DNA of 64,000 bases from Candidatus Kerfeldbacteria bacterium (GCA_047946875.1 CP181398.1:841041-905040), one strand, 5' to 3'; counted from the stretch's first letter, positions 13,788-49,921 are shown. Program-made: numbers and translations. Notes: generated by a model not told the origin, from the letters alone.

Positions 13788-13790
13788 GTG

Positions 13791-14531
13791 TTATTTTATC
13801 CAATCATAGCCCTTCTTTTCTACCTGAGCTGCTAGAACTTCCTTTCCCGACTTTAATATTTTCCCATCTTTCATAATATGAACATAATCAGGTTTAATAT
13901 GATTCAATATTCTAAAATAATGAGTTATAATCAATATTCCCATTTTTTTGTTTTCCTTTTGAACTTTTTTTATACCTTCTGATACTGTTCTCAAAGCGTC
14001 AATATCTAGCCCGCTATCCGTCTCATCAAGTATGGCCAATTTTGGATTTAATACTGCTAGCTGGAGTATTTCTAACTTTTTCTTCTCACCCCCAGAGAAT
14101 CCTTCATTAAGAGAACGTTCTGCTAAGTCTTTTTTAATTTTTAACATTTTAATTTTGGTCTCGAAATATTTTGAAAATTCCAAAGGTGATAGTTTATCTT
14201 TTGGATGGAGATTATTATAAGCACTTCTTAAAAAATGAGGTACAGACAATCCAGGGACTTCTACCGGATATTGGAAAGATAAAAATATCCCTAACTTTGC
14301 TCGATCTTCAGGAGACATATTTTTGATATTTTTACCCTGAGATTTAATCACACCAGAAATAACATGAAAACTTGGATGACCCATAATAGTAGAAGCCAAG
14401 GTTGACTTACCAGAACCATTTGGTCCCATCAGAGCATGTATCTCGCCTGGCTTAATATCTAGATCAAGCCCTTTAATAATATTCTTTTTTCCAATATTTA
14501 TTTTTATTTTTTTAATTTCTAATAATTTCAT
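13791..14531 (-). CDS. sufC: Fe-S cluster assembly ATPase SufC
   Basis: Walker A GPNGSGKSTL and an ABC signature region. First gene of the suf cluster. Confidence 0.9.
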   Translation of the reverse strand: MKLLEIKKIKINIGKKNIIKGLDLDIKPGEIHALMGPNGSGKSTLASTIMGHPSFHVISGVIKSQGKNIKNMSPEDRAKLGIFLSFQYPVEVPGLSVPHFLRSAYNNLHPKDKLSPLEFSKYFETKIKMLKIKKDLAERSLNEGFSGGEKKKLEILQLAVLNPKLAILDETDSGLDIDALRTVSEGIKKVQKENKKMGILIITHYFRILNHIKPDYVHIMKDGKILKSGKEVLAAQVEKKGYDWIK

Positions 14532-14534
14532 ATT

Positions 14535-15095
14535 TTATTTTTTTAAATAATTACATTCTACTTGAAACTTACATTCTACGCAGACAGGCTCTTCAGTTTT
14601 TAAATCATCTGTTAGATGACCACAAGCTATACAGAACAATTCAGGTATTATTTTCTTTGGATGAGAATCTTTTTGACAATGTTTACACAAACCACGAATT
14701 TCATAATTCTCTGAACGAATATAAAATTTATTTTTGCTAGCAATATCCTTTAATCCTCTAATTAAAGGCACGTCTTTTGAATCTTTAATTTCTTCGATAC
14801 CATGGCATTTTTCACAAACAAAATGTACATGACTATCAACACGCGATTCGAAATGAGTCACCTTATCAACTATAAATTGTTTTAATAATCCATGATCTGC
14901 TAAAAAACTCAAATTTCGATAAACCGTAGCCAAGCTGATATTCTTTAATCTCTTTTTAACTCCTTTATATACATTCTCAGCATTAGGATGTACATGATTT
15001 TTTCTTACCCAATCTAAAATAACTAACCTTTGCTTGGTTAATCTATAATCTTTTTTAGCAACTTTATCCTCTTTTTTTAATACTTTTTTTGACAT
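14535..15095 (-). CDS. Fur-family metalloregulator (Fur/PerR-like) with extra C-terminal Cys-rich zinc-ribbon-like extension
   Basis: Winged-helix region (LATVYRNLSFLADHGLL), then the Fur dimerisation domain with HFVCEKCHG, then an additional ~50 aa with CKHC...CIAC...CVEC. Start set at MSKKVLKK (15095) because an AAGGAA RBS lies 8 nt upstream. The ORF track starts at 15125. Confidence 0.7.
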   Translation of the reverse strand: MSKKVLKKEDKVAKKDYRLTKQRLVILDWVRKNHVHPNAENVYKGVKKRLKNISLATVYRNLSFLADHGLLKQFIVDKVTHFESRVDSHVHFVCEKCHGIEEIKDSKDVPLIRGLKDIASKNKFYIRSENYEIRGLCKHCQKDSHPKKIIPELFCIACGHLTDDLKTEEPVCVECKFQVECNYLKK

Positions 15096-16929: not shown

Positions 16930-17160
16930 TATCATACATCTACCTTAACATCTTATGTATGAAGGAAACCGGTTAGAATCCGGTGCTGTCGCGCAACTGT
17001 ACTCCATAATTTTTATGGTAAGCCAGGTCGATCATACATAATTATCTTGCATATTTATTTCATAATATGCATTCTCTTCGCGTAAAAAGAGATGGGTAAT
17101 TGTTTATACAATTATGGTCGTCCAAATCCTTGTACTCGAAGTTAAGGATTTTTTTATAAA
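16930..17160 (+). promoter_or_regulatory. Cobalamin (AdoCbl) riboswitch with terminator-type expression platform
   Basis: GGAAACCGGTTAGAATCCGGTGCTGTCGCGCAACTGTA matches the cobalamin riboswitch core. AAGCCAGG B12-box-like segment. Terminator hairpin aatcctt...aaggatt + T7 at 17123-17157, just upstream of the DUF4430 gene. Confidence 0.7.
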
Positions 17161-33064: not shown

Positions 33065-33244
33065 ATGACAAACCAACAAACTGACAATACTAAAAAAATT
33101 AAAGAAATGGTTGAAGCATATTCTGAGTTTAAAAAAACTATGGAAGTTTTGAGAACCGATCAAAGACATTTAATCAAAAAGTTTGTTGAAACAATGGATA
33201 AATCAAAAGCTGACGATATATTAAATAAAATTAAAAAATTATAA
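33065..33244 (+). CDS. Small coiled-coil protein (59 aa), not in ORF track
   Basis: MTNQQTDNTKKIKEMVEAYSEFKKTMEVLRTDQRHLIKKFVETMDKSKADDILNKIKKL. It fills the gap between the two flanking genes exactly. Confidence 0.4.
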   Translation: MTNQQTDNTKKIKEMVEAYSEFKKTMEVLRTDQRHLIKKFVETMDKSKADDILNKIKKL

Positions 33245-33246
33245 TT

Positions 33247-36200
33247 ATGACTACTCCAGAAAAAGACAAAGAGGGAAATAATAATAATGAAAGTGACACT
33301 CCAGCCACACCTGAACTTACCGAAACAGAAAAGAAGCTAGTAGATGCTCAAGCAGAGCTAAGTTTTGATGATGTAGAATCAACAACACCAGATGAAATTG
33401 CTGATAAGACTAAAGAAAAAGCAGCAGGTGATGTCGACAAAATTAAGAGTGATTTTACCGACGCCGGAATAAATATAACAGATGTTCCAGAAGCTGAAGC
33501 AGTCATTGAAAGTGCTACAGATGCAGAGACAACTCTGGGAAAAAAAGTAGATAAAATACAGAACAATACAGCTACACCCGAAACAGAAAAAACATACACA
33601 CCCAGAGAAATAGAAAACTTGGAAAATGGTAGCGATACAGCAGTAACTGGAGAACACCTAACCATAAATACAGCTAAAGACTCCTCTATTACCGTAGAAG
33701 ATGATGCCAAACTAACAATTAATGAAGGGAGAGATAATAAAATTACAACACATGGTAGTGGTACTGCTAATATAAAATCAGGATTGGATAACGAAGTAAT
33801 TGTCGCAGAACCAAAAGATGAGAAAGAAGAAGAACCTAAATATTCAGTTGGACAAGAAGTGAGTTTTAGAAATGAATCATTTGATAGATATGAACCAGGA
33901 ACAATCAAATCAGTCCGTATAGATGACACAGGGAAGAAAAAATATACAATACACAATCCAGAAAATGGAAGAGTATTCCCAACAGAATTAAATGAGGAAG
34001 ATTTTGAAACACCTAAAGAAGAAGAAATACAGGATAATACAACTACACCCGAAACCGAAGAAACTCCAGAAGGCGAAATGCCGGTAGAAATCAGAGAAGC
34101 CAAAGAAAAAAGAAAAGAAATATATTCTGCAATCGAAGTGGGTGAAGAATCCATTCAATTACTGGAAAATAGTGATCGTAAATCATGGCTAGCCAAAACT
34201 ATTTCAAAAATAAAGAAAGCAATTAATCCCAAAACTGGTAAATATAATATTAGAGAAAGATTTGACAGCTCTTCATTAACAGGTACCGCAAAAGCTGAAG
34301 AAGGAACAATATCTAAAGAAGAAGGAATTCCTTCAGATGATATGATATCAATCATATTAGAGCGAGCAGAAAAAATTAAAGAAAGTGCCGAATTACCAGC
34401 CAATGAGCTCAAAAAAGATTTAACAAAAAGAGGTCACTATAAAAAATTAGATGCCGCTGATTCAATCAAACAATTGGTAACAGAAAAGATTAAAGAACAA
34501 GAACAAGCATCAATTAGACATTTTAAACAAGACGGAACCCTGGCAGTAGGAATGAAAAAAAACGGAAAAGGATTTACAAAAAATCATAAAGAATCTTTGG
34601 CAGGAAAAATAGTAACTGACATTTCTAATGATGACTACGATATTAATGCAGAACTTAACCAGATGGTTAGTAATCTTGATAATACCGCAGCAATATTGAG
34701 TGACAATAGTGATACATATCATGATGCAAGATATAAAGAAAACCCCAAAATGAGTGATGAAGAATATCAGACAATGCAAGAAGAAAGAATAAACAGAGAA
34801 GCAATAATTGCTGCAGGAGATTATCGTGGGGGTGAAAATGCAAGCGCAACTCTTGATATAGACAGTGCTCGTGAAACTTTGAATGGTCGTCTAGAATTAG
34901 TTATACCAGGAATATCAGATGAAGAAGAAGAATTGGATAAAAAACCAACTCCAGAAAAACCTAAACCAGAAGACGAAGAAGAAAAACCAACTCCAGAAAA
35001 ACCTAAACCAGAAGACGAAGAAGAAATAACTCCTAAATCTGAAGATGATGATGAACCTAAACCAGAAGACGAGAAAGAAGAGGAAATAAACATCAAGGGA
35101 GCAACTGATAAATATGCTGAAATGATTTCTAGAGGTAGTAAATTCTTCAAAGGTAAAAATTACGATAAAGATCTAGATCAAGCAAGAGAAGAATATGAGA
35201 CTTCTTTAATGCATTATTTAGATAAAGAAGTTAAAGAAAAACTAGATGGTATTGATCCTTTTGATCCTGAAAATCCTGAACATCAACAAAAATTTGCGGA
35301 GATAAATGAAGCGGTCATGGACCAAAGAGAAGCGCTTGGAGAAGCTATTAAAGAAATACATGAATCAACTGCTGGCAGAAAGTTCAAAAACTGGTGGAGA
35401 AAAAGTGCTAAACTTAGAATGGTAGCTGGTCTTACTTTGACAGGTGGAGCTATTGTAGCCGGTGCAACTGGTGCTGGTTTACCAATCACTGCAGCTCTTC
35501 TAGCTGGTAGAGTCGCTCTGTCAGGCGTAGGCACTACCCTAGCAGTTGAGGGTGGCTATGAATACGCAAGAACCAAATATGGTAAAACTAAAGAACTTAC
35601 GAGTAAGGAAGTAGATAAAATGAGTTTATCTGAGCTTGAGGATGCTTATGCGGCTCATACCATTAACTCATCACTCAAAGGTTTAGACAGAGGGCAAGAA
35701 GCCAGTTTCTCTGGAGGAGTTAATACTGAAAAAACATTTATTAAACCTGATGACATGTCTGACGCTAATTGGGACATATTATCAGAAAAAGATAAAAAGA
35801 AAATAGAAGGCATCGAAAAAGAATATATTAAACCAAAGATACTTCTGGACGCTGATTGGGATAAGTTATCAGAAAATAATAAGATGTTGAACCCACTTAT
35901 ATCAAGAAATAGGATTATTAAAGAAAGAAAGGATATAAAAATGATCACTGACAGACTTATGGTGCTTAAGGCAGAACAGTTTAAGGCTGATCTAGATGTC
36001 AAAAAAGAGACAGGTGAATCAGACAGTGATATTGCATATGATGTTATCATGAACAGTATGGATACTTCTGAAAAGGATGCTGACAAAAAACTTGAAGGTA
36101 GAAATGCTGCAATATTAAAAAGTAATAAAAAGAAATGGACTATCGCAGTAGCTTCAGGATTAATCATGGCAAGTGTAATCGGGGTGAGAGGATTTAACAA

Positions 36201-37830
36201 CTTACCGGAAACACCAAAACCAACCACCGAAGATGTACCAGAAGCAACTCCTATACCAGAAGAGACTCCTATAGTTGAAGATGTACCAGAAGCAACTCCT
36301 ATACCAGAAGAGACTCCTATAGTTGAAGATGTACCAGAAGCTTTTGATGGTGCTGTAACTATTGAAAAGGGTGATAACTTATGGAACATAATTAAAGATC
36401 AAGTCAAAACCCAAATGGGTGAAGAAAAATGGGATGCTCTTGGCGAAGGACAACAAACTCATTTAATTGATCAATTCAAAGACACTGTAGCTGATAATCC
36501 TGGGGCGTTTGGACTAGAAAACCCAGATAATCTAGAAATTGGTCAGCAAATTGATCTATCCTCTCTTTATGAAAAAGGTAGCGAACTTGGTACAGCTCTT
36601 GAATCGTCAGCAACCCTTACAGAAAGTCAGTTAGAAAATATAACCGCCAATAATGATACATTGCAAGATTGGGTAACAGACAATCCAGGTAAAAGATTAA
36701 CAAGTGAATTGGTTAATGAAATTTTAAGTGATGATACAGTTGACTCCGACATAGGAGCTGCTTCTGAAGCAGTAGATGGTGCAGCTGCTACAGCTGAAAC
36801 TGCTACTGAAACTTCTGCAGAAGGTGCAGCTAAAAATATAACTAATAGTACCTCAACTACCGAGACAATGACAGATGTTGCTGATACTTCAGAAGCTTCT
36901 GAAGTTGCAGATGGTGGGGATGAGACTGTTACAGAAACAGCACCTGAAGCTGTAGAACAGGCAAAAGAGTTACTGCCAGTGAATGAAAATTGGAAAGAAT
37001 TGAAAAAACTTAGAGAATCTACAAAATACCTAACTAGTAGAACGTTAGACAGAGTGACTGATATGAAAGTACAAGACTTTGTTAAAGGTGAAATACTGGG
37101 TTCGGATGGAAATCCAGTAGACCTCCAAGATCATTTATCCAAAATGGAGGGCTTCAATAATAATGAAGCGAAAAGTTTTGTAAAAAACATGAAGAGTTTC
37201 ATTGAGCATGTTGGCAAAGAAGTTGGTAATGTTGATAGGAACTGGACTGTAGGTGAATTTAGTCAGAAAACTGGATTAATAGGTCCTGATGGTCCAATCG
37301 CATCCCCTTCAATCGGTAGTGGTCTAGATCGATTCCAAGAAGCAGGTGAACAAGCAACAGAATCATTTAAAGACAAATTAACATCTGCCGACGCCTCATT
37401 AGGTGAAGCTCCGACTGATCAACTAGCCGAATTACAAGCCAGTAACGCTGATACGGTAGCTCAATCACAAAAAGTCTCTGCAAACGTTAACGAAGTGCTT
37501 AATACTAAAATCCCAGTTGAAGCTGATATGAAAGATTATTTATCAATCCAAGAAGCAACAAATAGTATTGATGAAAAAACTATGGAATATCTGACCGACC
37601 ATCTAACATTAGATGATATTATAAAAAACAAAGAAGCCGTATTTAAAGGCGATACCATTAATGTTAAAGAAATACTTTCAAGATTTGAAGGTATGAATGA
37701 TAAGCAGGCAAAAGGGCTAATAAGTGGAGTGAAGGGATTATATAAGCAACTCACCGGGCAAGGTTATCCTATCAACACGAATATGACCTTAGGAGAGTTT
37801 AGTAGCAAGATAGATATAATAGAAAAATAA
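33247..37830 (+). CDS. Giant (1527 aa) acidic repeat-containing surface/membrane protein with LysM-like segment
   Basis: Highly acidic low-complexity protein. Two predicted TM regions (MVAGLTLTGGAIVAGATGAGLPITAALLAGRVALSGVG and WTIAVASGLIMASVIGV). Tandem peptide repeats. LysM-like motif VTIEKGDNLWNIIKDQ...NPDNLEIGQQIDL. Intrinsic terminator at 37846-37874. Confidence 0.7.
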   Translation: MTTPEKDKEGNNNNESDTPATPELTETEKKLVDAQAELSFDDVESTTPDEIADKTKEKAAGDVDKIKSDFTDAGINITDVPEAEAVIESATDAETTLGKKVDKIQNNTATPETEKTYTPREIENLENGSDTAVTGEHLTINTAKDSSITVEDDAKLTINEGRDNKITTHGSGTANIKSGLDNEVIVAEPKDEKEEEPKYSVGQEVSFRNESFDRYEPGTIKSVRIDDTGKKKYTIHNPENGRVFPTELNEEDFETPKEEEIQDNTTTPETEETPEGEMPVEIREAKEKRKEIYSAIEVGEESIQLLENSDRKSWLAKTISKIKKAINPKTGKYNIRERFDSSSLTGTAKAEEGTISKEEGIPSDDMISIILERAEKIKESAELPANELKKDLTKRGHYKKLDAADSIKQLVTEKIKEQEQASIRHFKQDGTLAVGMKKNGKGFTKNHKESLAGKIVTDISNDDYDINAELNQMVSNLDNTAAILSDNSDTYHDARYKENPKMSDEEYQTMQEERINREAIIAAGDYRGGENASATLDIDSARETLNGRLELVIPGISDEEEELDKKPTPEKPKPEDEEEKPTPEKPKPEDEEEITPKSEDDDEPKPEDEKEEEINIKGATDKYAEMISRGSKFFKGKNYDKDLDQAREEYETSLMHYLDKEVKEKLDGIDPFDPENPEHQQKFAEINEAVMDQREALGEAIKEIHESTAGRKFKNWWRKSAKLRMVAGLTLTGGAIVAGATGAGLPITAALLAGRVALSGVGTTLAVEGGYEYARTKYGKTKELTSKEVDKMSLSELEDAYAAHTINSSLKGLDRGQEASFSGGVNTEKTFIKPDDMSDANWDILSEKDKKKIEGIEKEYIKPKILLDADWDKLSENNKMLNPLISRNRIIKERKDIKMITDRLMVLKAEQFKADLDVKKETGESDSDIAYDVIMNSMDTSEKDADKKLEGRNAAILKSNKKKWTIAVASGLIMASVIGVRGFNNLPETPKPTTEDVPEATPIPEETPIVEDVPEATPIPEETPIVEDVPEAFDGAVTIEKGDNLWNIIKDQVKTQMGEEKWDALGEGQQTHLIDQFKDTVADNPGAFGLENPDNLEIGQQIDLSSLYEKGSELGTALESSATLTESQLENITANNDTLQDWVTDNPGKRLTSELVNEILSDDTVDSDIGAASEAVDGAAATAETATETSAEGAAKNITNSTSTTETMTDVADTSEASEVADGGDETVTETAPEAVEQAKELLPVNENWKELKKLRESTKYLTSRTLDRVTDMKVQDFVKGEILGSDGNPVDLQDHLSKMEGFNNNEAKSFVKNMKSFIEHVGKEVGNVDRNWTVGEFSQKTGLIGPDGPIASPSIGSGLDRFQEAGEQATESFKDKLTSADASLGEAPTDQLAELQASNADTVAQSQKVSANVNEVLNTKIPVEADMKDYLSIQEATNSIDEKTMEYLTDHLTLDDIIKNKEAVFKGDTINVKEILSRFEGMNDKQAKGLISGVKGLYKQLTGQGYPINTNMTLGEFSSKIDIIEK
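34942..35025 (+). repeat. Tandem 42-bp coding repeat x2 (KPTPEKPKPEDEEE) plus a degenerate third unit
   Basis: aaaccaactccagaaaaacctaaaccagaagacgaagaagaa repeated perfectly at 34942-34983 and 34984-35025. Confidence 0.8.
36229..36341 (+). repeat. Tandem 48-bp coding repeat x2.3 (EDVPEATPIPEETPIV)
   Basis: gaagatgtaccagaagcaactcctataccagaagagactcctatagtt at 36229-36276 and 36277-36324, with a partial third copy. Confidence 0.8.
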
Positions 37831-40005: not shown

Positions 40006-41295
40006 TTAATAATCCCTTAATTTTTTCATTCCTTGGTGTTCTTCAATCCTTTCCAATGCTTTTGCTTCAATCTGACGAATACGTTCACGTGTTACACCAA
40101 ATTCTTGACCAACTTCTTCTAGAGTATGAGAAACTCCATCTACTAAACCAAAACGCATTTCCAAAATTTTATGTTCACGAGGTGACAACTCTCTAATAAT
40201 TTCTAATACGTGATCTTTTAATAATTGCATTGCAGCGACACGGTCAGGTGTGACAGTTTTCTGATCTTCTATAAAATCTCCTAATACAGAATCTTCATCA
40301 TCACTATCCCCTACAGAGGTTTCAAGAGATACTGTATCTTGTGATATTTTCATAATATGATGAACTTTTTCTACTGTTTCTCCAAGCTCAGCAGCTATCT
40401 CTTCGGCTAGTGGTTCTCTACCCAAATCTTGAATTAATTGTCTAGATACGTGGGTGTATCGATTAATAGTTTCCACCATATGTACTGGAATTCTAATAGT
40501 ACGTGATTGATCAGCCAATGCTCTTGTTATAGCTTGTCGGATCCACCAAGTAGCATATGTAGAAAATTTATAACCTTTTCGATAATCAAATTTTTCTACC
40601 GCTCTAAATAATCCAATATTTCCTTCTTGAATCAAATCTAATAAAGATAAGGAGCGCCCAGTAAATTTCTTGGCTATTGATACAACCAACCTAAGATTTG
40701 CCTCTACCAATTTTCTCTGTGCTTCGATCTCTCCTTTTTCTTTCAATTTTGCGAGTTTAACTTCTTCTTCACGTCGTAATAATGGTACCTTACCAATCTC
40801 TCTCAAATACATCTGAATTGAATCATTAGAAATATCAGACATATCCAAACGTTGCTTGTCCGATGCCTTTTTTTTCTTTCCTTTAACCTCAGTTTCGATT
40901 AAATCTTCTGGCCTACTTAAAACAGTGCCAGTAATTTCAACTACCTGAATTCCAGAACTTTCTAAATCATCCAAAAAATCTTCATATTCTAGTATATATT
41001 CTTCTAGTTCTGGGAAGCTATATAATATTTCTGTTTCTGTAATAAACCCTCTTGATCTTGCTTTTTCATAAAGCTTTTCAACTTTAGACATATCCAGCTC
41101 AATCTTTTTTGCCTTTTTAGCTGAAATTTTTGGATCTTTAGATTTAGATGTTTTTTTAACGGCTTTTTTTGCAGCCGTCTTTTTGTTTACAGGTTTAGAT
41201 GTTTTTTTAACGGCTTTTTTTGCAGCCGTCTTTTTGTTTACAGGTTTAGATGTTTTTTTGGTTTTTGTAATCAAACTAGCTTTTGTTTTAGGCAT
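40006..41295 (-). CDS. rpoD: RNA polymerase sigma-70 factor RpoD, with Lys-rich repeated N-terminal extension
   Basis: Regions 2-4 present ([23 protein letters not shown], region 4 HTH). The N-terminus contains 2 x [17 protein letters not shown]. Confidence 0.9.
41143..41244 (-). repeat. Tandem 51-bp direct repeat x2 inside the rpoD 5' coding region
   Basis: tttagatgtttttttaacggctttttttgcagccgtctttttgtttacagg at 41143-41193 and 41194-41244. Confidence 0.75.
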
Positions 41296-41306: not shown

Positions 41307-43106
41307 TTATTCTAAATGTTTAAGCTCATTTGCTAATTCAGAAAATTTTTGACTATATTCATTAGCGGCCACCGAATCACCGGATTGTTCAAATTTTTGT
41401 AATTTTAACTCAATCTCCTTTAATTCTAGATGAATTAAATTCTTTTTTAAGTCTTTAGTCCCAGTTTTAAGCTCTTTTTGAATTTCTTCATCTTCCATTT
41501 CACCAAAAAGATTTGAGGCTTTTAAAGACAAAATATTAGCATAAGTTGCTAATTTTTGATCGTTAGCTAAATTTACTTTTATAAATTCATTATAGTCAAA
41601 GTTGTGCTTTTCAGTATAGTAAATTATCATACTTTTGTAAAGTTTTTTCAATTGTTCATTTGGCATAAATTCAGGTAATAACACGTCAACATATTCTTCT
41701 AATAACTCTGGCTTATTTATTATCATGCCAATTACATTCTCTGCCAAGTTTATAAAACGATTCTTTATTTCTGGCTTTGCTATTTCAGGATCAGATTTTT
41801 GTTTTTTTTGACTAGCCGTATCTTTATTTAATATTTGTAATAATTTATCTCTTAAAATATTCTCCTCTACATTCAAAATCCCTGCCAACTTTTGTAAGTA
41901 ATGAGTTTGCTCAATTGGGTCAACTAATTTTGAAATGACAGGCAATAATACTTTTGCAATTTCTTTTTTATCTTCAACTTTTGTTTCATCATATTTATTC
42001 AATGTTGAATCGAAATAATATTCCATAACAGATTGCGCATTTTCAATAGCTCTGGTCCAAGCTGATACATCTTTTTTTATTAAATCGTCAGGATCTTTTG
42101 CGTCAGGCAACTGAATAACTTTTGTATTCATATCTTCTTGCCAGGCCACTTCTATTCCACGTTTTGCAGCAGCATCGCCAGCTACATCTTGATCAAAAGC
42201 AAAAGCAATATTATTTGAAAATCTTTTTAGCATTTTTACTTGCTCAGAAGTTAAAGCTGTGCCAGAAGACGCAACTACATTAATAACTCCAGCCTGATGT
42301 GAAGATAAGCAATCCATATATCCTTCTACTACCACAGCTACTTTTTTTTGCTTTATCTCTTGTCTAGCTTTATCTAAACCAAATACTACATAACTCTTAT
42401 TATATACCAACGTTTGTGGAGAATTAATATATTTTGCAATTTTTTCTTCCTTGCCTAACCATCGTCCACCAAAACCAATTATATTTCCTTGTGTATCGCT
42501 GATTGGAAACATTAAACGATTTCTAAATCTATCATTATATCCGACTCCTCTATCTTTTTTTATAGTTAGGCCAGCCTGAAAAATATCATCCTCTTTATAA
42601 CCTTTTTTTACCAAGTAAGTATTTAATGTATCCCATGCATCCGGAGAATAACCTAATTTCCATTCTTCTATAGTCTCGTCTTTTACCTGACGATCAATTA
42701 AATATTTTTTGACAAATTCTGCTTTAGGATGGTCAACTAAAATTTTATGATAAAAATTTGCAGCTTCCTTACAAACATCCATTAATCTAGTTTTTTGATT
42801 ATTTACTGCTGGATCTTGATATTGCAATTCTACTCCTGCTTTTTTTGCCAACATACGCAATGCTTCAGGAAATTCCATGCCTTCCATCTTTTGAACAAAA
42901 CCATATATATCTCCTCCTTCACCACAGCCAAAACAATGCCATATTTGTTTATCTCTAGATATCATAAAAGACGGCGTCTTTTCATTATGAAAAGGACAAT
43001 TTGCTTTAAAATTATTTGTACCTGCTGGCTTTACTTGAATGTACTCTTGAATCAAGTCAACCACATCAATTTTACTTTTTATTTCTTCAATATTATCTTG
43101 TGCCAT
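41307..43106 (-). CDS. dnaG: DNA primase DnaG
   Basis: Zinc ribbon [11 protein letters not shown]...[12 protein letters not shown] polymerase domain, Toprim EGYMD. Confidence 0.9.
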
Positions 43107-43136
43107 TTATTTCAATTTGTTTATATAATTTTACTC

Positions 43137-43228
43137 TGGCGGAGAGAGAGGGATTCGAACCCTCGAAGGAATTTGACTCCCTTACTTGCTTTCCAAGCAA
43201 GCGCACTAGACCACTATGCGACCTCTCC
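43137..43228 (-). tRNA. tRNA-Ser(GGA)
   Basis: rc GGAGAGGTCGCATAGTGGTCTAGTGCGCTTGCTTGGAAAGCAAGTAAGGGAGTCAAATTCCTTCGAGGGTTCGAATCCCTCTCTCTCCGCCA. Anticodon loop UUGGAAA. Long variable arm. Encoded CCA. Confidence 0.85.
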
Positions 43229-43233
43229 AAGTC

Positions 43234-43485
43234 TTATTTAATATCAGATCGCAACATTTCTTTAAATTGAATTCCACCTTTAAAGCTTTTTATCATTAAT
43301 TCTCTCAAGTAAGCCTCCGATTTTGACTTAAACATTTCTTTATAAATTATTATCCATGGAATACCAGACTTTGTTGATCTTACAGAGCCACTATTATGTT
43401 TTTTAAGTCGTGCAATTAAATTTTTAGTATGTCCAATATAATGCTTTCTATTTTTTTCACTCTGTAAAACATAAGTAACAAACAT
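43234..43485 (-). CDS. Small stand-alone GIY-YIG nuclease (UPF0213/YhbQ-like)
   Basis: FVTYVLQSEKNRKHYIGHTKNLIARLKKHN matches the GIY-YIG motif in an 83-aa protein. Confidence 0.7.
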   Translation of the reverse strand: MFVTYVLQSEKNRKHYIGHTKNLIARLKKHNSGSVRSTKSGIPWIIIYKEMFKSKSEAYLRELMIKSFKGGIQFKEMLRSDIK

Positions 43486-43529
43486 ATATTTTTACTTTCT
43501 GCCGCAGAGCGGCATCCCGCTTTGCGGGG

Positions 43530-43566
43530 CAAGCAAGCGCACTAGACCACTATGCGACCTCTCCAA
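43530..43566 (-). repeat. 37-bp perfect direct repeat of the tRNA-Ser 5' half (copy 2; copy 1 = 43194-43230), bracketing the GIY-YIG gene
   Basis: caagcaagcgcactagaccactatgcgacctctccaa occurs at both sites. Copy 2 lacks the rest of the tRNA and is followed (on the minus strand) by two GC hairpins (CCCGCAAAGCGGG, TGCCGCTCTGCGGCA). A further short remnant GGAGAGGTCC sits at ~43655. Confidence 0.8.
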
Positions 43567-43841
43567 ATTTAACTACTATAAAATATCTTATTTCATCATA
43601 ATCACTAGCATAAGGACATTTATATTATGCGCCTGCCCACCGAAGCATAGCAAAGGTGGGACCTCTCCTTATTTTAACTAAAAATAGCCAAAAATGCTAC
43701 TAATTCAGTATACCATAGCATTTTTATTCACAAAAGAAAAGGTCATAATAAGCCAATTTTGCATAATTTTATAAATATACTTGACTTATATTAATAATTT
43801 GCTAAGATGGGTGCTGGAACCTAGTATTAGGAGGGAGTAAT

Positions 43842-44102
43842 ATGATTCCATTTGACACTTTAGCTGTCATTGGGTTTATTATTCAGCCCTTTCTAATCTC
43901 TAGCCATCCGATCCTGTTGGAGGACGAAAATCGTCTCTCGGACAGGCAACTGGCAAGTGCTATTCTCTGCGGAGATTTACGATACGGTCCCGAGTGGACC
44001 AATATCGAGCGCTGCCAAGTATTTTTCCCAAATGTTGAAGAAGCCCATGATGCAATTGGTCTGCTTGGGAATCGTGATTGGCTAGAGGGTAGGACCTCAT
44101 AG
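43842..44102 (+). CDS. Module A of a tandem duplicated element: 86-codon ORF (or structured RNA) with its own promoter, strong SD and terminator
   Basis: TTGACT-N17-TAAGAT promoter (43786-43815), AGGAGG SD 7 nt before ATG, ~50% GC body, terminator AGGGCGG...CCGCCCT + U-run at ~44167-44212. Near-identical to module B except a 45-nt patch. No family recognised. Confidence 0.35.
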   Translation: MIPFDTLAVIGFIIQPFLISSHPILLEDENRLSDRQLASAILCGDLRYGPEWTNIERCQVFFPNVEEAHDAIGLLGNRDWLEGRTS

Positions 44103-44279
44103 GGTTTGGAGTTGTTGTAACTCCATTGTTGCTCTTGAGGAGAGGGTTGGTTCTACCCAACAAAAAAACTAGGGCGGCTCCTTTTTAGAAACCGCCCTAC
44201 TTTATATTGTTTTTGAAAATATTCAGGACAGCTAAAATTAATTAATAAAAAACCCATCTTCACATTTGTAATGACGGGT

Positions 44280-44465
44280 TTATTCTTTTGACGCCTTGCT
44301 CGTTTCATCTTTCACCTTCTTTTTTTCTTTGTTCCGATCGTATCCTTTTTCACCCTTTTTTTCTGAATGTGGTCCACCAGTTTGTTTTGGTAGTGGGATA
44401 CGACCATGTAAACGTTTAAAACGTTCTAGGTCAGTTTCTTTTTTCTTCTTTTTCTTTTTTGACAC
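44280..44465 (-). CDS. Lys-rich small basic protein (61 aa, GTG start)
   Basis: AAGGAG RBS + GTG. A divergent TTGACA promoter overlaps the module-B promoter. Terminator hairpin at ~44239-44272. Confidence 0.35.
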   Translation of the reverse strand: MSKKKKKKKETDLERFKRLHGRIPLPKQTGGPHSEKKGEKGYDRNKEKKKVKDETSKASKE

Positions 44466-44614
44466 TTTTTACTCCTTTATTTTGAAAGTGACAATTTATT
44501 ATTACTTATTTTATGCCCAATGTCAAGTATATTTATAATATTATTCAAAACTCTTGACATATACCATTAACCTGCTAAGATGGGTGCTGGAACCTAGTAT
44601 TAGGAGGGAGTAAT

Positions 44615-44875
44615 ATGATTCCATTTGACACTTTAGCTGTCATTGGGTTTATTATTCAGCCCTTTCTAATCTCTAGCCATCCGATCCTGTTGGAGGACGA
44701 AAATCGTCTCTCGAGCAGGCAACTGGCAAGTGCTATTCTCTTAGGAGATTTACGATACGGTCCCGAGTGGACCAATATCGAGCGCTGCCAAGTATTTTTC
44801 CCAAATGTTAAAGCAACATCAGGCATTTGTTATCGGCCCCGGGAACGTGAATGGCTAGAGGGTAGGACCTCATAG
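44615..44875 (+). CDS. Module B of the tandem duplicated element (paralog of 43842..44102)
   Basis: Identical promoter (TTGACA-N17-TAAGAT), SD and first ~190 nt. Internal 45-nt segment replaced. Conserved 3' region and terminator (~44940-44985). Confidence 0.35.
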   Translation: MIPFDTLAVIGFIIQPFLISSHPILLEDENRLSSRQLASAILLGDLRYGPEWTNIERCQVFFPNVKATSGICYRPREREWLEGRTS

Positions 44876-45007
44876 GGTTTGGAGTTGTTATAACTCCATT
44901 GTTGCTCTTGAGGAGAGGGTTGGTTCTACCCAACAAAAAAATTAGGGCGGCTCCTTTTTAGAAACCGCCCTACTTTATATTGTCTTAAATTGTTTAATTC
45001 TCCATAA

Positions 45008-47347
45008 CTACTGAACTTTGTGGTAAGTACCCAAAGTAGTAGCCTCTTTGATGCACTCGGAAAATATCAATGGCACCATTTCCTCTTCACTTTGCAAAAA
45101 TGTACTCGCATTACCGATGATTATCAAAGCATCTTCAGCACGAGACAATGCAACACGCAACCGATTTATATTCTTATTAAAACCGATTTTGCCGTTGGTA
45201 TTTGAGCGTACAAAGCTGAGAATAATCACTTTTCGCTGTGATCCCTGGAAAGCATCCACTGTATTTACCGATTGGTATAATATCCTGCGGATAGCTGCTT
45301 CAGTCATGTCAGCAGTTTTTCTCCACTCTTTCAGTCGCCTATCCATAAACAGAGCATCTCGCAGTTTTCTTCTAATCAGATCAATCTGCGCCCTGTATGG
45401 AGTAATTGTGGCAACATCTTCCAGACTATAGCCTTTTAGAAGAAGTTTCACAATACGCTCAACAACGATATTAGCCTCACGACTGTTCAGATAAGAAGTT
45501 CCCTTCCTTTCCTCTTCGTTATCTTGCGCACCTGAAGTGTCAAAGAAAGAAAAATATCCGTCATCATCAGTATCAAACCTCCCGGGTATCAGCATTCCTT
45601 TATAAAAAAGTCTGCTAATAAGCCTGCAAATTACAGGCAATGACCTTCTGTTAACATTTAACAAATTAACAGGAAGCAAACCCATAGAGATAATGCAGTT
45701 GAACCACCCCTTGGAAAAGTTATCAATATCTATCGGAGAAAAACCAGCATGACCCAGATGCTCTCTGGCATCAGGAACAATATCAATATTTCCAAGCTGC
45801 TCGGGATCACCTATAAACACAATCTTGCCAGTTGTTTGCTGGACAATGGGAAGGATTTCAAAAAGAAATCCTCTAGATGCTTCATCAATAAATGTCAGAT
45901 CAAAGCTATATCCCAATTTCCTCAATGCATTCAAGGTGCGATCAACGAGAAAGGAAGACATTGTACAAGCCAATACCACATTACTGCCACCATAAAGCAT
46001 ATTATCAATTTTTTTAGTTTCTCTCTTTGACAATTCGCTGTCCGTATTAGCCTTCTCACTGTCTCTGAATTCGTCATTTACCACAAATCTTGTGGAACGA
46101 TGAAAACTTTTCCCGGGATCAGTTATACTGTCTGCATTGTTTCCAAGCCTGAATATTAAATCTTCATTGCCAATACCCTTAGATACGAAAGAAACTAAAT
46201 TATCCGTACCTTGGTTGCTGTGTGACACAAGAAGAGTTATCCTATTTTGGAGCCATGACTGCTTTATGGCCAAGGAAGTCATAAATGACTTACCTGTTCC
46301 AGCAGGACCCTGCACAAGAACAATACCTCTATTACTAGCAAAGCTAGACAGAGACAATAGCTGCGAACGGTCTTGGAAAAGCATACGGGCCTGAAATTTA
46401 TCAAGAGATAACGAGTCGTACTGCTCTGCACCGTTGTTGTGCTGAACACCCGACATAATGCGATAAGACAATGAAAATTCATCATCATCCACCAAACTAG
46501 TACATAGATCATACTGAGCTTGTGCAATACCGCTACTCACTTCTCTCTTAAATTGAACGATGTCATTGACAGCGAACCTTGGAATAGGTACGGGAAAAGA
46601 AACAATTATTTCTTCTTCGCGTACGGATTCAACAATAGCTGAAATTTCTAAGCCTCTGGAATTAAAAAAGATAATTACATTATCTTCATAAAAAACTGGC
46701 ATTCCACGAAACATAAATTCTTCAGTTATTGGAATCGTCACCCTCTTGACCTTGGGCGCTTTTTTCTTCCCTCTTTTCAAAGGAAATTTGAATCCTATTG
46801 AAAAAGCAAGATGATCAATCCCTTGGAGCCACCCCAAATACCATTCCAGATAAGAAACCGAAACTCTAAGCATTGGACTAAAAAGATCCAAACTCAGTTT
46901 TTGGTCTGGAATTCCGGTAGGACCGAGAGAATGCACCTTAGAATAGTTACATCCCTGATCTGGTGTATGATCAAAAATTATTGGCAAAGGTTCTATAACC
47001 TGACCAATAAGTCCAACAAACTTATCCCAATCTCCTTCAAAATAATGGACATCATAATGCCCATCTTCATGAATAACGAAAATCTGTGGAGAAAAACTCT
47101 TCTTCCCCCCGCCTCGACACAGTATCACCTGCGTATCAGGAAATTCCTTTTTAATAGGAATCGCTACGGTTTCAAGACTTTCATTTATGATGACAATCAG
47201 ATCCGGATTACCTTCTATCTTATCAGGTTTCTTCTCACTGCTTGTTGTGAAGGGAATTTGTCTGCGTTTCAGCTGATCACTGAACACATTATCTCCCCCA
47301 CGTGCAATGAAGAGAACAGATTTGAAACTGAACTCTGGATTTTGCAT
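45008..47347 (-). CDS. Upf1-like superfamily 1B helicase (AAA_11/AAA_12 type) with ~330-aa N-terminal domain of unknown function
   Basis: Walker A LVQGPAGTGKSF. Motif II LTFIDEASRG (DEAS). C-terminal NTVDAFQGSQRKVIILSFVR and RLRVALSRAEDALIIIG (motifs V/VI of Upf1/DNA2-like helicases). Local GC is about 43-45%, well above background. Confidence 0.7.
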   Translation of the reverse strand: MQNPEFSFKSVLFIARGGDNVFSDQLKRRQIPFTTSSEKKPDKIEGNPDLIVIINESLETVAIPIKKEFPDTQVILCRGGGKKSFSPQIFVIHEDGHYDVHYFEGDWDKFVGLIGQVIEPLPIIFDHTPDQGCNYSKVHSLGPTGIPDQKLSLDLFSPMLRVSVSYLEWYLGWLQGIDHLAFSIGFKFPLKRGKKKAPKVKRVTIPITEEFMFRGMPVFYEDNVIIFFNSRGLEISAIVESVREEEIIVSFPVPIPRFAVNDIVQFKREVSSGIAQAQYDLCTSLVDDDEFSLSYRIMSGVQHNNGAEQYDSLSLDKFQARMLFQDRSQLLSLSSFASNRGIVLVQGPAGTGKSFMTSLAIKQSWLQNRITLLVSHSNQGTDNLVSFVSKGIGNEDLIFRLGNNADSITDPGKSFHRSTRFVVNDEFRDSEKANTDSELSKRETKKIDNMLYGGSNVVLACTMSSFLVDRTLNALRKLGYSFDLTFIDEASRGFLFEILPIVQQTTGKIVFIGDPEQLGNIDIVPDAREHLGHAGFSPIDIDNFSKGWFNCIISMGLLPVNLLNVNRRSLPVICRLISRLFYKGMLIPGRFDTDDDGYFSFFDTSGAQDNEEERKGTSYLNSREANIVVERIVKLLLKGYSLEDVATITPYRAQIDLIRRKLRDALFMDRRLKEWRKTADMTEAAIRRILYQSVNTVDAFQGSQRKVIILSFVRSNTNGKIGFNKNINRLRVALSRAEDALIIIGNASTFLQSEEEMVPLIFSECIKEATTLGTYHKVQ

Positions 47348-47439
47348 TCTATATCTCCCATTTGAATATTTTACATTTTATTAAAGAACAAACAATTAAA
47401 AAACCTTAACAAATATTTTGTATCTAGTCAAGCTTTAAA

Positions 47440-47476
47440 AATAACAAAAGAGGCTTATTTTAAGCCTCTTTTGTTT
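47440..47476 (-). terminator. Intrinsic terminator downstream of ppsA
   Basis: aaagaggctta tttt aagcctcttt hairpin flanked by A/T runs. Confidence 0.55.
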
Positions 47477-47485
47477 GAATATTGT

Positions 47486-49921
47486 TTATTTTCTTTTTTC
47501 TGCTTTTACTATATCAATTGTAGTTTTGATTACAGTATCTGGTATAAGAGACATACTATCAATATCTTCTTTGGCAATAAATCTTGCAAACTCTGGATAG
47601 TCAGATGGCGCTTGTCCACAAATACCAATTTTTCTCTTATTTTTTCTAGCAGCCTTAATCACATCTCTAACCAATCTTTTAACAGCATCGTTACGTTCAT
47701 CATAGATATGAGCCACCAACTCTGAATCACGATCAACTCCCAAAGCTAATTGCGTAAGATCATTAGATCCTATAGAAAAACCATCGAAAATCTTGGAAAA
47801 CTGATCGGCTAAAATAACATTAGCAGGTATCTCACACATAACATAAACTTCTAGCTTATTCTTGCCTCTTTCTAAACCATATTTTTTCATTGTGGCTAAT
47901 ACTTTTTTACCTTCTTCGACAGTTCTACAAAATGGTACCATTACTTTTAGATTATTTAGACCCATTTTCTCTCGTACTCTACGAATAGCTTCACACTCTA
48001 AGGCAAAGGCAGGTTCGTAGTTTGGATCGTAATACCTTGAAGCTCCGCGCCAACCAATCATCGGATTACTCTCTTCTGGTTCAAAATATTTACCACCAAC
48101 TAAACTTGCATACTCATTAGATTTGAAATCAGAAAATCTTAAAATAACATCTTTAGGATAAAATGCTGCAGCGATACGTCCAATACCTTCTGCTAATTTT
48201 TGAATATAGAATTCCGGTTTAGATTTATATCCATCAGTTGCTTCTTCAATTATTTTTCTTTCTGCTAGATCAGTAACTTTATTAAACTTCAATAATGCTA
48301 ATGGATGAATCTTAATATAAGATGTAATAATAAATTCTTCACGAGCCAATCCTACACCATCATTGGGAATCAATGAATCAGCAAAGGCTGTTTCTGGATT
48401 ACCCACGTTCATCATAATCTTAGTACGTGGTCTCTTCAAAGTTTTTAAGTTTGTTTTCTTGATAGTAAATGGCATCTTACCTTTATAAACAAATCCACGC
48501 TCACCTTCAGCGCAAGATATTGTAACAATACCTCCTTTTTTTAAATCCTCAGTAGCAGTAGACGTACCTACTACACAAGGCACTCCTAACTCACGAGAGA
48601 TAATAGCGGCATGACAAGTTCGTCCACCAGAATTTGTTACTATAGCAGCTGCTTTCTTCATAATTGGCTCCCAGTCCGGATCAGTCATTTCTGTAACCAA
48701 CACCTCTCCCTCTTTAAACTGATGAATATCTTTAACGTCTTTAATGATATGTACTGGCCCAACTGCAATCTTGGATCCAACTGAAGCTCCTTCAGTTAAT
48801 ACGGTACCTCGCTTGTCCAAAATATATGATATTAATTCATTTGGGTTTTGCTGACTTGTTACAGTCTCTGGTCTAGCTTGCACAATAAATAGCTGACCAG
48901 TTTGACCATCTTTAGCCCATTCCATATCCATTGGCTTGAAATGACCCGCTTTGGCAGAATAATGATCCTCAATAATCATTGCCCATTTAGCAAGTTTTAA
49001 TATTTCATTGTCAGTTAAAGAATATTTTTTTCTATCAGCTTTAGATACAGGGACGTTCTTAACTGGCTTATTACCAGTATCTGCATAAATCATTTTGATT
49101 TCTTTACTACCAAGAGTCCTGCCAATAATGGGTCTAAATCCTTGTTTTAATGTTGGCTTATGAACATAAAACTCATCTGGTGTTACAGCACCTTGTACAA
49201 CATTTTCACCAAGTCCATAAGCTGAGTTAATTAGTACAGCATCTTTGAATCCTGACTCTGTATCAATGGAAAACATAACTCCAGAAGATGCTAAATCAGA
49301 ACGTACCATTTTTTGTACGGCGATTGATAAATAAACATCAAACTGGCCAAAACCTTTAGTCTTACGATAAGAAATAGCACGGTTAGTAAATAGTGATGCA
49401 AAACAAGCTTTACATGATTCTATTAATGCGTGAGCTCCATGTACATTTAAATATGTTTCCTGTTGTCCAGCAAAAGAAGCGTCAGGCAAATCTTCAGCAG
49501 TAGCACTTGATCGAACTGCCGTATCCACATTAGCTATTTTATATTGTTTTGATAATTTTTTATAAGCAGCTACTATTTCATCCTGTAATTCTTGTGGAAA
49601 ATGAGCGTGCATAATAATATCCCGTACTTTCCTACCCCTTTCGTACAAATTTTTCAAATTATGAGTATCTAAACCGCTTAAAGCCCTTTCAATATCATCA
49701 TGAATTCTTGCTTTTTTTAATAAATATTTATATGCATATGATGTAATAGCAAATCCATTTGGCACTTTAACACCTTTCTTAGCCAATTCTCGATACATCT
49801 CACCCAATGAGGCATTTTTACCTCCAACTAGTGCTATATCCTTAATTGTTATTTCATCAAACCAAAGAATAAAACGTTTATTTCTTGAAACAGTACGTTT
49901 TGTTTTTTTTGCTTTTGCCAT
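47486..49921 (-). CDS. ppsA: Phosphoenolpyruvate synthase (pyruvate, water dikinase)
   Basis: 811 aa with N-terminal ATP-grasp, phospho-His domain GGRTCHAAIISRELGVPCVVG, and C-terminal PEP-utilising TIM barrel. Confidence 0.9.
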   Translation of the reverse strand: MAKAKKTKRTVSRNKRFILWFDEITIKDIALVGGKNASLGEMYRELAKKGVKVPNGFAITSYAYKYLLKKARIHDDIERALSGLDTHNLKNLYERGRKVRDIIMHAHFPQELQDEIVAAYKKLSKQYKIANVDTAVRSSATAEDLPDASFAGQQETYLNVHGAHALIESCKACFASLFTNRAISYRKTKGFGQFDVYLSIAVQKMVRSDLASSGVMFSIDTESGFKDAVLINSAYGLGENVVQGAVTPDEFYVHKPTLKQGFRPIIGRTLGSKEIKMIYADTGNKPVKNVPVSKADRKKYSLTDNEILKLAKWAMIIEDHYSAKAGHFKPMDMEWAKDGQTGQLFIVQARPETVTSQQNPNELISYILDKRGTVLTEGASVGSKIAVGPVHIIKDVKDIHQFKEGEVLVTEMTDPDWEPIMKKAAAIVTNSGGRTCHAAIISRELGVPCVVGTSTATEDLKKGGIVTISCAEGERGFVYKGKMPFTIKKTNLKTLKRPRTKIMMNVGNPETAFADSLIPNDGVGLAREEFIITSYIKIHPLALLKFNKVTDLAERKIIEEATDGYKSKPEFYIQKLAEGIGRIAAAFYPKDVILRFSDFKSNEYASLVGGKYFEPEESNPMIGWRGASRYYDPNYEPAFALECEAIRRVREKMGLNNLKVMVPFCRTVEEGKKVLATMKKYGLERGKNKLEVYVMCEIPANVILADQFSKIFDGFSIGSNDLTQLALGVDRDSELVAHIYDERNDAVKRLVRDVIKAARKNKRKIGICGQAPSDYPEFARFIAKEDIDSMSLIPDTVIKTTIDIVKAEKRK

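Follow-up and report, generated by a model that had tools for sequence, protein, structure and literature searches.

In the 64,000-nucleotide stretch of DNA from Candidatus Kerfeldbacteria bacterium analysed here (GCA_047946875.1, CP181398.1:841041-905040, called the window below), the gene for a Upf1-like helicase of superfamily 1B (SF1B) is followed on the opposite strand by two copies of a small convergent element, each predicted to give a folded transcript with a small open reading frame (ORF). Judged by profile searches, the helicase and the convergent element are a two-part accessory module restricted to Patescibacteria (the Candidate Phyla Radiation, CPR), and the pairing of the helicase with an undescribed structured small-ORF transcript is a truly new element. 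A preliminary description of the window had proposed a single-gene system. That proposal failed: in all the family loci examined, the helicase comes with a convergent transcript that is structured and holds a small ORF; two 96%-identical repeats of about 434 nucleotides (nt), which the description had missed, are the conserved partner of the helicase. Coordinates are collected in Table 1, and the labels L001-L104 denote the loci compared (family carriers, relatives, and controls).

The helicase ORF starts with ATG on the minus strand, and its product is 100% identical to a protein annotated as 'MAG: DEAD/DEAH box helicase [Candidatus Kerfeldbacteria bacterium]' (MAG, metagenome-assembled genome) on a 1.31-Mb contig. 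All the motifs quoted in the preliminary description were found in the translation, namely GPAGTGKSF (347-355), IDEAS (487-491), VDAFQGSQRKVII, and RLRVALSRAEDALIIIG, and its assignment of the protein to the Upf1-like SF1B helicases agrees with the matches in Pfam, in the Protein Data Bank (PDB), and at the level of fold. Pfam gave AAA_11 at amino acids (aa) 326-442 (9.7e-15) and AAA_12 at aa 549-747 (1.8e-39), and matched no domain in residues 1-325. The profile of 46 family members matched Upf1 (3.6e-54) and IGHMBP2 (1e-49) in the PDB, and also SETX/Sen1, ZNFX1, DNA2, and Aquarius. The full AlphaFold2 (AF2) model of the helicase matched Upf1 8rd3_A in Foldseek at 4e-26, and about 670 of its alignment columns match the cores of Upf1 and IGHMBP2, which are about 620 aa long.

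The helicase shows both features by which membership of the Upf1-like SF1B group was judged, the RecA motifs on the one hand and a 1B domain with stalk plus a 1C insertion on the other. In the AF2 model a helix (156-178), strands forming a barrel (199-268), and helices (273-298) precede RecA1, further helices occupy 410-452, and the predicted local distance difference test (pLDDT) score is 63-92 in the stalk, 1B, and 1C blocks. From its position 204 onward the family profile can be aligned with residues 81-409 of IGHMBP2, an alignment that reaches into 1B. The NCBIfam model 'IGHMBP2 family helicase' gave 143.8 bits, under its cutoff of 348.9. By these comparisons the helicase is a new subfamily of the Upf1-like SF1B helicases. 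Its ATPase is probably active, because motifs I (G347-K353), II (D488 E489), III (G513 D514..Q517), V (T696-G702), and VI (R729..R736) are invariant or nearly so across the 46 sequences, and it would translocate 5'->3' on RNA (or RNA/DNA). A predicted terminator between ppsA and the helicase gene implies that the latter is a separate transcription unit.

The preliminary description had set apart an uncharacterised N-terminus of 330 aa. A family-specific domain does exist there, but it has only about 140 aa, and residues ~155-310 are the Upf1-type stalk and 1B domain. Residues 1-~140 were modelled confidently as a Rossmann/CheY-like alpha/beta fold, whose fold neighbours are receiver or Rossmann domains and not PD-(D/E)xK, PLD, or HNH. 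Conserved positions in the domain are F22, the invariant N55 at the end of beta3, G80, G81, K83, D99, and W107, with GG-x-K following beta4. The acidic/His cluster HEDGHYDVHYFEGDWDK, which had been read as part of a possible nuclease or sensor module, is present at residues 93-109, but it is not conserved in the 46 family members, where only D99 (72%) and W107 (89%) recur, and no conserved acidic/His or D/E/H/K catalytic set was found in the domain across these sequences. A PD-(D/E)xK, PLD, or other nuclease in the N-terminus was ruled out by the fold neighbours and by this absence of conserved catalytic residues. A true receiver (REC) domain was ruled out as well: the residue at the end of beta3 is Asn55, no acidic pair follows beta1, hhalign against CheY gave a probability of 0.12, and the protein has no Pfam Response_reg match. 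The domain may resemble receiver domains in its modelled fold only and is, by profile comparison, a new domain family. We read it as a probable regulatory or ligand-binding domain and not a nuclease.

These results bear on the proposal of a single-gene helicase-effector defence protein, similar to Nhi or Mokosh, in which the N-terminal third is a nuclease or another effector. The gene is accessory, moves laterally, and lies in a hotspot, and its best PADLOC match is MkoA (3.4e-62). However, only the helicase part of MkoA is matched, there is no PLD or kinase, the Nhi match is limited to 40 aa of the P-loop, the N-domain has a receiver/Rossmann fold without a catalytic set, and a conserved second component exists. 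We therefore regard this explanation as largely refuted and very unlikely. The earlier remark that no PLD gene is present was right for the protein and for the neighbouring ORFs, while membership in Mokosh or Nhi is contradicted by the lack of PLD, kinase, and nuclease and by profile matches that are partial only.

When all ORFs of 70 aa or more lying up to 6 kb from the helicase were clustered over 17 loci, no conserved protein partner was found. Each family locus for which the sequence beyond the helicase is available (about 20) nevertheless has one or two tandem convergent units right after the helicase stop codon, on the opposite strand. The loci are the window, with two copies, and L001, L002, L003, L005, L008, L009, L010, L011, L012, L013, L014, L015, L017, L018, L019/L097, L091, L095, L096, and L104. 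All parts of a unit are predicted: a strong sigma-70-type promoter, a small ORF of 56-121 codons whose start codon has an AGGAGG-type Shine-Dalgarno (SD) sequence, and a terminator, giving a transcript of about 260-420 nt. The other flanking genes differ among these loci, and the small element is the sole neighbour conserved across lineages. The second copy in the window was found with nhmmer at 1.1e-41 and its ORF has the SD sequence AGGAGG and an ATG; outside a 42-nt block the two window copies are about 99% identical in pairwise alignment.

In 1.97 Mb of DNA, with about 130 control loci of unrelated Upf1-like helicases among it, the only sites matched by nucleotide and protein profiles of the element lay beside the family helicase. 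The members held out from the profiles (L095, L096, and L104) were recovered at 2.7e-24 to 1.9e-14. No match was obtained in L087-L089, three relatives that lack the helicase, or in the rest of the window. The helicase and the unit thus come and go as a pair. At the position of the element in L089 a different, self-promoted ORF of 69 codons (12850-13110, minus strand) lies next to tRNA-Ser; it was considered as a homologue and dropped, being not detectably homologous by nhmmer. Against Rfam 15 at gathering thresholds the window gave only tRNA and the adenosylcobalamin (AdoCbl) riboswitch, a permissive scan of 43200-45100 gave only terminator-like matches below threshold, and the elements of L003, L014, L015, and L017 gave no match. 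Literature searches returned no description of the helicase family or of the module. The elements are a candidate new structured RNA/small-ORF family of about 25 instances.

The transcript of the element is predicted to be highly structured. For 43810-44205 the minimum free energy is -149.2 kcal/mol, compared with -114.8 +/- 4.95 for dinucleotide shuffles (z = -6.96), and z ranges from -2.1 to -7.7 in all 16 units tested. A hairpin, P3, directly precedes the conserved nucleotide motif CAGGCARMYGG; both sides have changed in four of its five pairs, and pairing holds in 90% of the alignment cells, versus 23-49% with a slid partner. A second helix, P2, joins some 10 nt on the 5' side of P3 to a stretch close to the stop codon. 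The sequence of P2 is lineage-specific, with the two strands complementary in every case: CUCUAGCC/GGCUAGAG in the window, CCCCAGGCC/GGCCUGGGG in L001, CUCCGAGGCC/GGCCUCGGG in L002/L008, and CCCCGCAU/AUGCGGGG in L010. The elements form two groups, A and B, which have no similarity at the protein level and are united by one nucleotide profile. P2 of group B reads UUUGYMGC/GCKRCAAA, with U-A to C-G and A-U to C-G swaps. In a cross-locus control the own 5' strand ranked its own 3' region best, or second to that of a sister, in 12 of 23 units (about 2 expected), and for copy 1 of the window the own 3' region was rank 1 of 23. When whole elements were aligned with MAFFT/RNAalifold, the 3' half was placed wrongly and P2 did not emerge. 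A pairing of block D with block F inside the element was not general and was dropped.

The 5' strand of P2 can also pair with the motif after P3, as UGUUUG/CARAYG in group B (alignment columns 82-87/133-138) and as GCCA with UGGC in the window (43902-43905/43950-43953). The two pairings would exclude each other, giving alternative folds like those of riboregulators or metastable toxin mRNAs.

In the window, L003, and L097 the tandem copies are near-identical save for one block of about 40 nt located 5' of the P2 3' strand. The two variable blocks of the window were compared with IMG/VR for a guide-like match; there was none, a result that is uninformative.

As small-ORF genes, all 25 ORFs are open from an SD sequence and AUG or GUG, with a chance probability of 0.0005-0.16 each; the summed log10 p of -42 overstates the case, since some units are close relatives. 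ORFs of group B always end in (K/R/V)-x-P-P-stop, with Pro codons that vary at third positions, and L018, L096, and L104 share the peptide stretch EKLKxFSFxS...EFxFxF with conservative replacements. Most peptides start with a hydrophobic segment, the maximal Kyte-Doolittle value over 15 aa being at least 1.5 in 16 of 20. Antisense to the element start codons there are promoter-like matches of 9/12 (43870->43842 and 44643->44615); 23 such matches occur in the region, compared with 13.2 expected. An apparent 'RQ' peptide motif is in fact the nucleotide motif, because the latter falls in a different reading frame in each of the window, L017a, and L013. Plain small protein genes, defined by a signal peptide, the 'RQ' motif, and KPP-stop, were rejected on this reading in several frames and on the covariation of the helices, and a pure non-coding RNA (ncRNA) was rejected on the ORFs being kept open, with the summed log10 p given above. 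The element would then be a translated, highly structured transcript, in which selection may act on the fold together with translation or termination beside the P2 3' strand, or on a fast-diversifying peptide.

A rival explanation is that the convergent transcripts are mainly ncRNAs that bind the helicase in a ribonucleoprotein (RNP) as scaffold, gate, or guide, the block of about 40 nt giving specificity and the ORF being secondary. It would account for a motif read in three frames, for compensated helices with strongly negative z-scores, for a flat codon-position pattern, for groups united by a nucleotide profile and not by protein similarity, and for tandem copies that differ mainly in one block. 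We nevertheless find it rather unlikely, given ORFs open far beyond chance with an SD sequence and start codon in every instance, third-position variation before the PP-stop, the conservative replacements in L018, L096, and L104, variable blocks without an IMG/VR match, and the fact that no RNA-guided Upf1-like helicase is known. It is doubtful, too, that the helicase is the RNP partner of, or a surveillance factor on, a dedicated translated and structured RNA, forming a new RNA-dependent CPR system in which the cassette of about 40 nt would set specificity and the output could be defence or addiction.

A profile of helicase residues 1-322 was searched against 1.84 billion cluster representatives and matched 51 proteins; all the full-length family matches (697-1000 aa) share the layout of N-terminal domain plus helicase. 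The family occurs in 13 loci among 185,579 species-representative genomes, all of them Patescibacteria-type MAGs or single-amplified genomes, some mislabelled. Searches of IMG/VR, of the INPHARED phages, and of the PLSDB plasmids gave no relatives of the helicase or of its N-terminus, and a collection of 5.8 billion proteins gave no other helicase more than 45% identical to that of the window. By these searches the helicase family is restricted to Patescibacteria.

Six carriers (L001, L002, L008, L009, L010, and L011) have the helicase at the same position as the window, in the order wzy-groES-groEL-...-ppsA-[helicase]-tRNA-Ser(GGA)-...-dnaG-rpoD, with proteins 41-45% identical to that of the window. 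In L087, L088, and L089, the closest relatives as judged by PpsA (87, 83, and 85% identical), tRNA-Ser follows ppsA after 0.7-1.5 kb and no helicase or remnant was found at the locus. The presence/absence polymorphism next to tRNA-Ser that the preliminary description had suggested looking for is therefore real. Carrier helicases are 39-49% identical pairwise, except in the sister pairs L002/L008 (78%) and L009/L010 (77%), and PpsA of the same genomes is 64-91% identical. The helicase evolves fast (39-49% identity where PpsA has 64-81%). Its divergence ratio to DnaG is only 1.1-1.6. The GC content of the gene is 0.398, and at third codon positions (GC3) it is 0.35, a value that none of the window's 28 other ORFs of 250 aa or more reaches (0.17-0.275). 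The composition is therefore atypical, as had been stated, but not at the GC of about 44% given then. GC3 is an outlier in the window and in L001 and matches the neighbours in most carriers.

Vertical, non-island inheritance, suggested by the synteny of L001 and L002, was dropped because the closest PpsA relatives lack the gene and GC3 is an outlier. Lateral acquisition is the most economical account of the absence in the closest relatives, the helicase and PpsA identities, and the GC3 anomaly, which agrees with the horizontal origin claimed in the preliminary description. The helicase of the window was probably acquired laterally, by homologous recombination at the conserved flanks, from a GC-richer carrier with the gene at the same locus. 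The content of the ppsA-dnaG interval varies by genome (Big_7 surface protein, HD, MazG-like, NUDIX, P-type ATPase, GIY-YIG, and SIR2), and the ppsA-tRNA-Ser-dnaG interval is a variable accessory-gene recombination hotspot in Kerfeldbacteria-like genomes. In L008 the hotspot holds a 400-aa SIR2-like gene (13679-14878) that matches the PADLOC SIR2 defence models at 8.9e-12; its GC3 of 0.28, against about 0.6 in its neighbours, marks it as a recent foreign insertion.

Conserved synteny of the helicase is also seen in another pair of lineages, L018, a Candidatus Falkowbacteria MAG, and L019, so the gene can reside stably for a long time. In the Falkowbacteria-type helicase (L018 9893-12594, and L094) an in-frame stop codon gives ORFs of 257 and 605 aa in two independent assemblies. 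The split gene could be a pseudogene, a case of recoding, or a shared assembly error, and the partner element is retained.

Another rival explanation is a lineage-specific housekeeping helicase beside dnaG and rpoD, acting in RNA decay, R-loop removal, transcription termination, or replication, with the small gene incidental or co-regulated. The ppsA-helicase-tRNA-Ser-dnaG-rpoD synteny in six relatives and the second syntenic pair are in line with such a role, as are a GC3 similar to that of the neighbours in most carriers, the lack of an effector domain, and the low divergence ratio to DnaG. Nevertheless, the gene is gone without remnant from the three closest relatives and occurs in only 13 of the 185,579 species representatives, its GC3 is an outlier in the window and L001, and the only neighbour conserved across lineages is the small element and no housekeeping gene; we consider a housekeeping function unlikely. 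As evidence against its own view the preliminary description had named a housekeeping accessory N-domain in a syntenic and ubiquitous gene: the 1B domain and stalk are indeed standard and synteny holds in several relatives, but the gene is not ubiquitous.

A helicase of an integrative element, plasmid, or phage, serving replication or transfer and inserted at tRNA-Ser, would fit the adjacency to a tRNA gene, the duplicated tRNA fragments, and the atypical composition. We found, however, no integrase, recombinase, relaxase, or replication initiator ORF in 43000-47500. The tRNA-Ser fragment repeats bracket only the 83-aa GIY-YIG ORF, none lying beyond the helicase, the family has no relatives in the phage, virus, and plasmid collections searched, and the gene sits at the same position in divergent genomes. 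In no other genome was the module seen on a circular or excised element or between att-type repeats. This origin is most improbable, and a tRNA-bounded island is not supported either. The statement of the preliminary description that the helicase lies between a tRNA gene with duplicated fragments and a housekeeping gene was correct in that tRNA-Ser and ppsA flank the helicase, but the duplicates enclose the GIY-YIG ORF instead.

We propose, tentatively, that the helicase acts on the partner transcript or on the ribosomes translating it and so controls a small peptide. The helicase would be a 5'->3' RNA (or RNA/DNA) translocase, and the partner transcript its substrate or regulator. It would remodel the P2/P3 fold, or act on ribosomes translating or terminating beside the P2 3' strand, and would thereby gate the output of a small, mostly membrane-directed peptide. 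The N-domain may be a regulatory or ligand-binding switch, comparable to the CH domain in Upf1, and the likeliest role of the module would be in genetic conflict, as a defence, abortive-infection, or addiction system, and not in core metabolism.

Several observations weigh against this proposal. That the helicase and the element are adjacent does not prove that they interact physically or functionally. Neither Pfam nor PADLOC gave a match for the small ORFs, and no recognisable effector (nuclease, PLD, protease, or pore-forming family) was found in the module. Several peptides of group A (L001, L009, and L002) are not hydrophobic; the Kyte-Doolittle maxima are 0.86-1.39 in L001, L009, L008, and L002. 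Substitutions by codon position (159/137/183) are nearly flat, and the peptide may therefore be unimportant. P2 of the AU-rich group B rests on hand-aligned covariation and not on a formal test, and the full-length AF2 model of the helicase has a pLDDT of 71, which is moderate only. The stable synteny of the helicase in two lineages (group A and L018/L019) also fits a lineage-specific housekeeping role, and its neighbours in the window, rpoD, dnaG, ppsA, and groEL, include no known defence gene.

Table 1. Features of the helicase locus and its surroundings in the window (positions counted from the first nucleotide of the window).
Feature	Position	Strand	Remarks
Helicase gene, 779 aa, Upf1-like SF1B	45008-47347	-	ORF and translation, Pfam; stop codon 45008-45010
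RecA1 and RecA2 motor domains	45011-46414	-	all ATPase/helicase motifs; helical 1C-like insertion in RecA1, aa ~404-455
Stalk helices and 1B beta-barrel (aa ~155-310)	46418-46885	-	AF2 secondary structure, fold and profile alignment
Family-specific N-terminal alpha/beta domain (aa 1-~140)	46928-47347	-	invariant N55; near-invariant G80, G81, K83, F22
ppsA terminator, upstream of helicase	47443-47475	-	15-bp stem and T-run
Partner element copy 1	43810-44205	+	86-codon ORF 43842-44102; P2 43898-43905/44080-44087; P3 43913-43917/43942-43946; nucleotide motif 43943-43953
Promoter of element copy 1	43781-43808	+	predicted
Partner element copy 2	44583-44978	+	86-codon ORF 44615-44875; P2 44671-44678/44853-44860; P3 44686-44690/44715-44719
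Nucleotide motif of element copy 2, CAGGCAACTGG	44716-44726	+	
Promoter of element copy 2, TTGACA-16-TAAGAT	44554-44581	+	10/12, TG-extended, predicted
42-nt block differing between copies	44037-44078 (copy 1), 44810-44851 (copy 2)	+	ORF codons ~66-79, just 5' of P2 3' strand
Bidirectional terminator of helicase and element copy 2	44943-44972	.	13-bp stem, then TTTTTTT on minus strand
Same terminator hairpin	44170-44199	.	ends element copy 1 and Lys-rich ORF
Repeats D1/D2, ~434 nt, 96% identical	43780-44213, 44553-44986		between tRNA-Ser and helicase
rpoD	40006-41295	-	
dnaG	41307-43106	-	
tRNA-Ser(GGA)	43137-43228	-	
83-aa GIY-YIG ORF	43234-43485	-	Pfam 3.8e-14; immediately 5' of tRNA-Ser(GGA)
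37-nt exact duplicate of tRNA-Ser 5' part	43530-43566 (= 43194-43230)		
Third partial copy of tRNA-Ser fragment	43657-43681		
Lys-rich 61-aa ORF between the two element copies	44280-44465	-	
ppsA (phosphoenolpyruvate synthase)	47486-49921	-	then groEL/ES

Several other features of the window were recorded. The GIY-YIG ORF with the tRNA duplicates looks like a small homing-type element that targets tRNA-Ser and restores its 5' half, and the layout of GIY-YIG followed by tRNA-Ser recurs in L008 and L088. The Lys-rich 61-aa ORF between the element copies has the best sigma-70-like promoter match of the region (44526->44498, 11/12) and shares the bidirectional terminator of element copy 1. Its 'LERFKR' is reminiscent of the ribosomal protein bS21, with no Pfam match for the ORF; rpsU normally lies upstream of dnaG-rpoD. 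PpsA of the window has homologues of 67-70% identity labelled Woesearchaeota or Nanoarchaeota (DPANN), mixed with Patescibacteria matches, which could mean inter-domain exchange of ppsA or mis-binned contigs. The AdoCbl (cobalamin) riboswitch (Rfam RF01482) lies at 16937-17073 on the plus strand, with 61 bits against a gathering score of 50. A 1531-aa ORF (33235-37827, plus strand) is the sole long plus-strand gene in its part of the window and coincides with a local reversal of GC/AT skew (33-38 kb).

In eukaryotes Upf1-like helicases have a central place in RNA surveillance and antiviral sensing; their bacterial counterparts have so far been linked chiefly to defence systems that contain a nuclease, such as Mokosh and Nhi. 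The design of the present family differs, with no nuclease, a new N-terminal alpha/beta domain, and one constant partner, a folded transcript with an open small ORF. If the helicase and the transcript interact, they would offer, in genomes of about 1 Mb, a compact model for the action of a helicase on an RNA of its own, and the CPR, which is poorly explored, would have a novel type of accessory or immune module; should the RNA-dependent version hold, the module would be a bacterial analogue of translation-coupled RNA surveillance. Whatever the function, a candidate structured RNA/small-ORF family, a new domain family, and a documented ppsA-tRNA-Ser-dnaG hotspot are gained.

Among known systems, Mokosh combines a COG1112 RNA helicase with a PLD nuclease, with a Ser/Thr kinase domain in the type I protein MkoA, and comprises type I (MkoA/MkoB) and type II (MkoC) (Millman et al. 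2022, bioRxiv 10.1101/2022.05.11.491447). The COG1112/Upf1-like core and an accessory, patchy distribution are common to Mokosh and the present family. The match to MkoA (PDLC03920, 3.4e-62, 209 bits) aligns aa 326-756 of the helicase with positions 617-1082 of the 1112 in the profile, so that profile positions 1-616 are unmatched, and the helicase has neither a kinase match in Pfam nor a PLD. Its neighbours are GIY-YIG, small ORFs, and ppsA, with no conserved partner of at least 70 aa over the 17 loci, and its partner is instead a structured small-ORF transcript. Nhi is likewise a stand-alone Upf1-like helicase with an extra N-terminal domain. The present helicase is not Nhi, because it has no nuclease domain or residues and the Nhi profile reaches only the P-loop (aa 338-379, 40 aa, E = 3.5e-4).

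The element resembles type I toxin-antitoxin systems (hok/sok, AapA/IsoA, and zor/orz) in its small ORF, stable fold, and long-range 5'-3' helix, and also in its own strong promoter and terminator, tandem copies, and variable intergenic space. It differs from them in its longer ORFs (56-121 codons), in a peptide that is not always hydrophobic, and in the linked helicase; no type I system is known to have a linked large helicase. Rsr (Ro60) and its Y-RNAs likewise pair a protein gene with adjacent structured RNA genes that are lost and gained together, whereas the element has no Ro/Y-RNA features or Rfam match, its ORFs are maintained, and the protein is a helicase.

With Upf1, IGHMBP2/SMUBP-2, Sen1/SETX, ZNFX1, Aquarius, and DNA2 the helicase shares the RecA motifs, the 1B domain on a stalk, and a 1C-like insertion. 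It is bacterial and confined to the CPR, with an identity to these eukaryotic proteins of only 17-22%. Its N-domain is Rossmann/CheY-like where theirs are CH zinc-knuckle, R3H, or HEAT-type, and its motif IV reads NRRS in place of QYRMH. Unlike them, it has no known protein partners and stands next to a dedicated convergent RNA/small-ORF gene.

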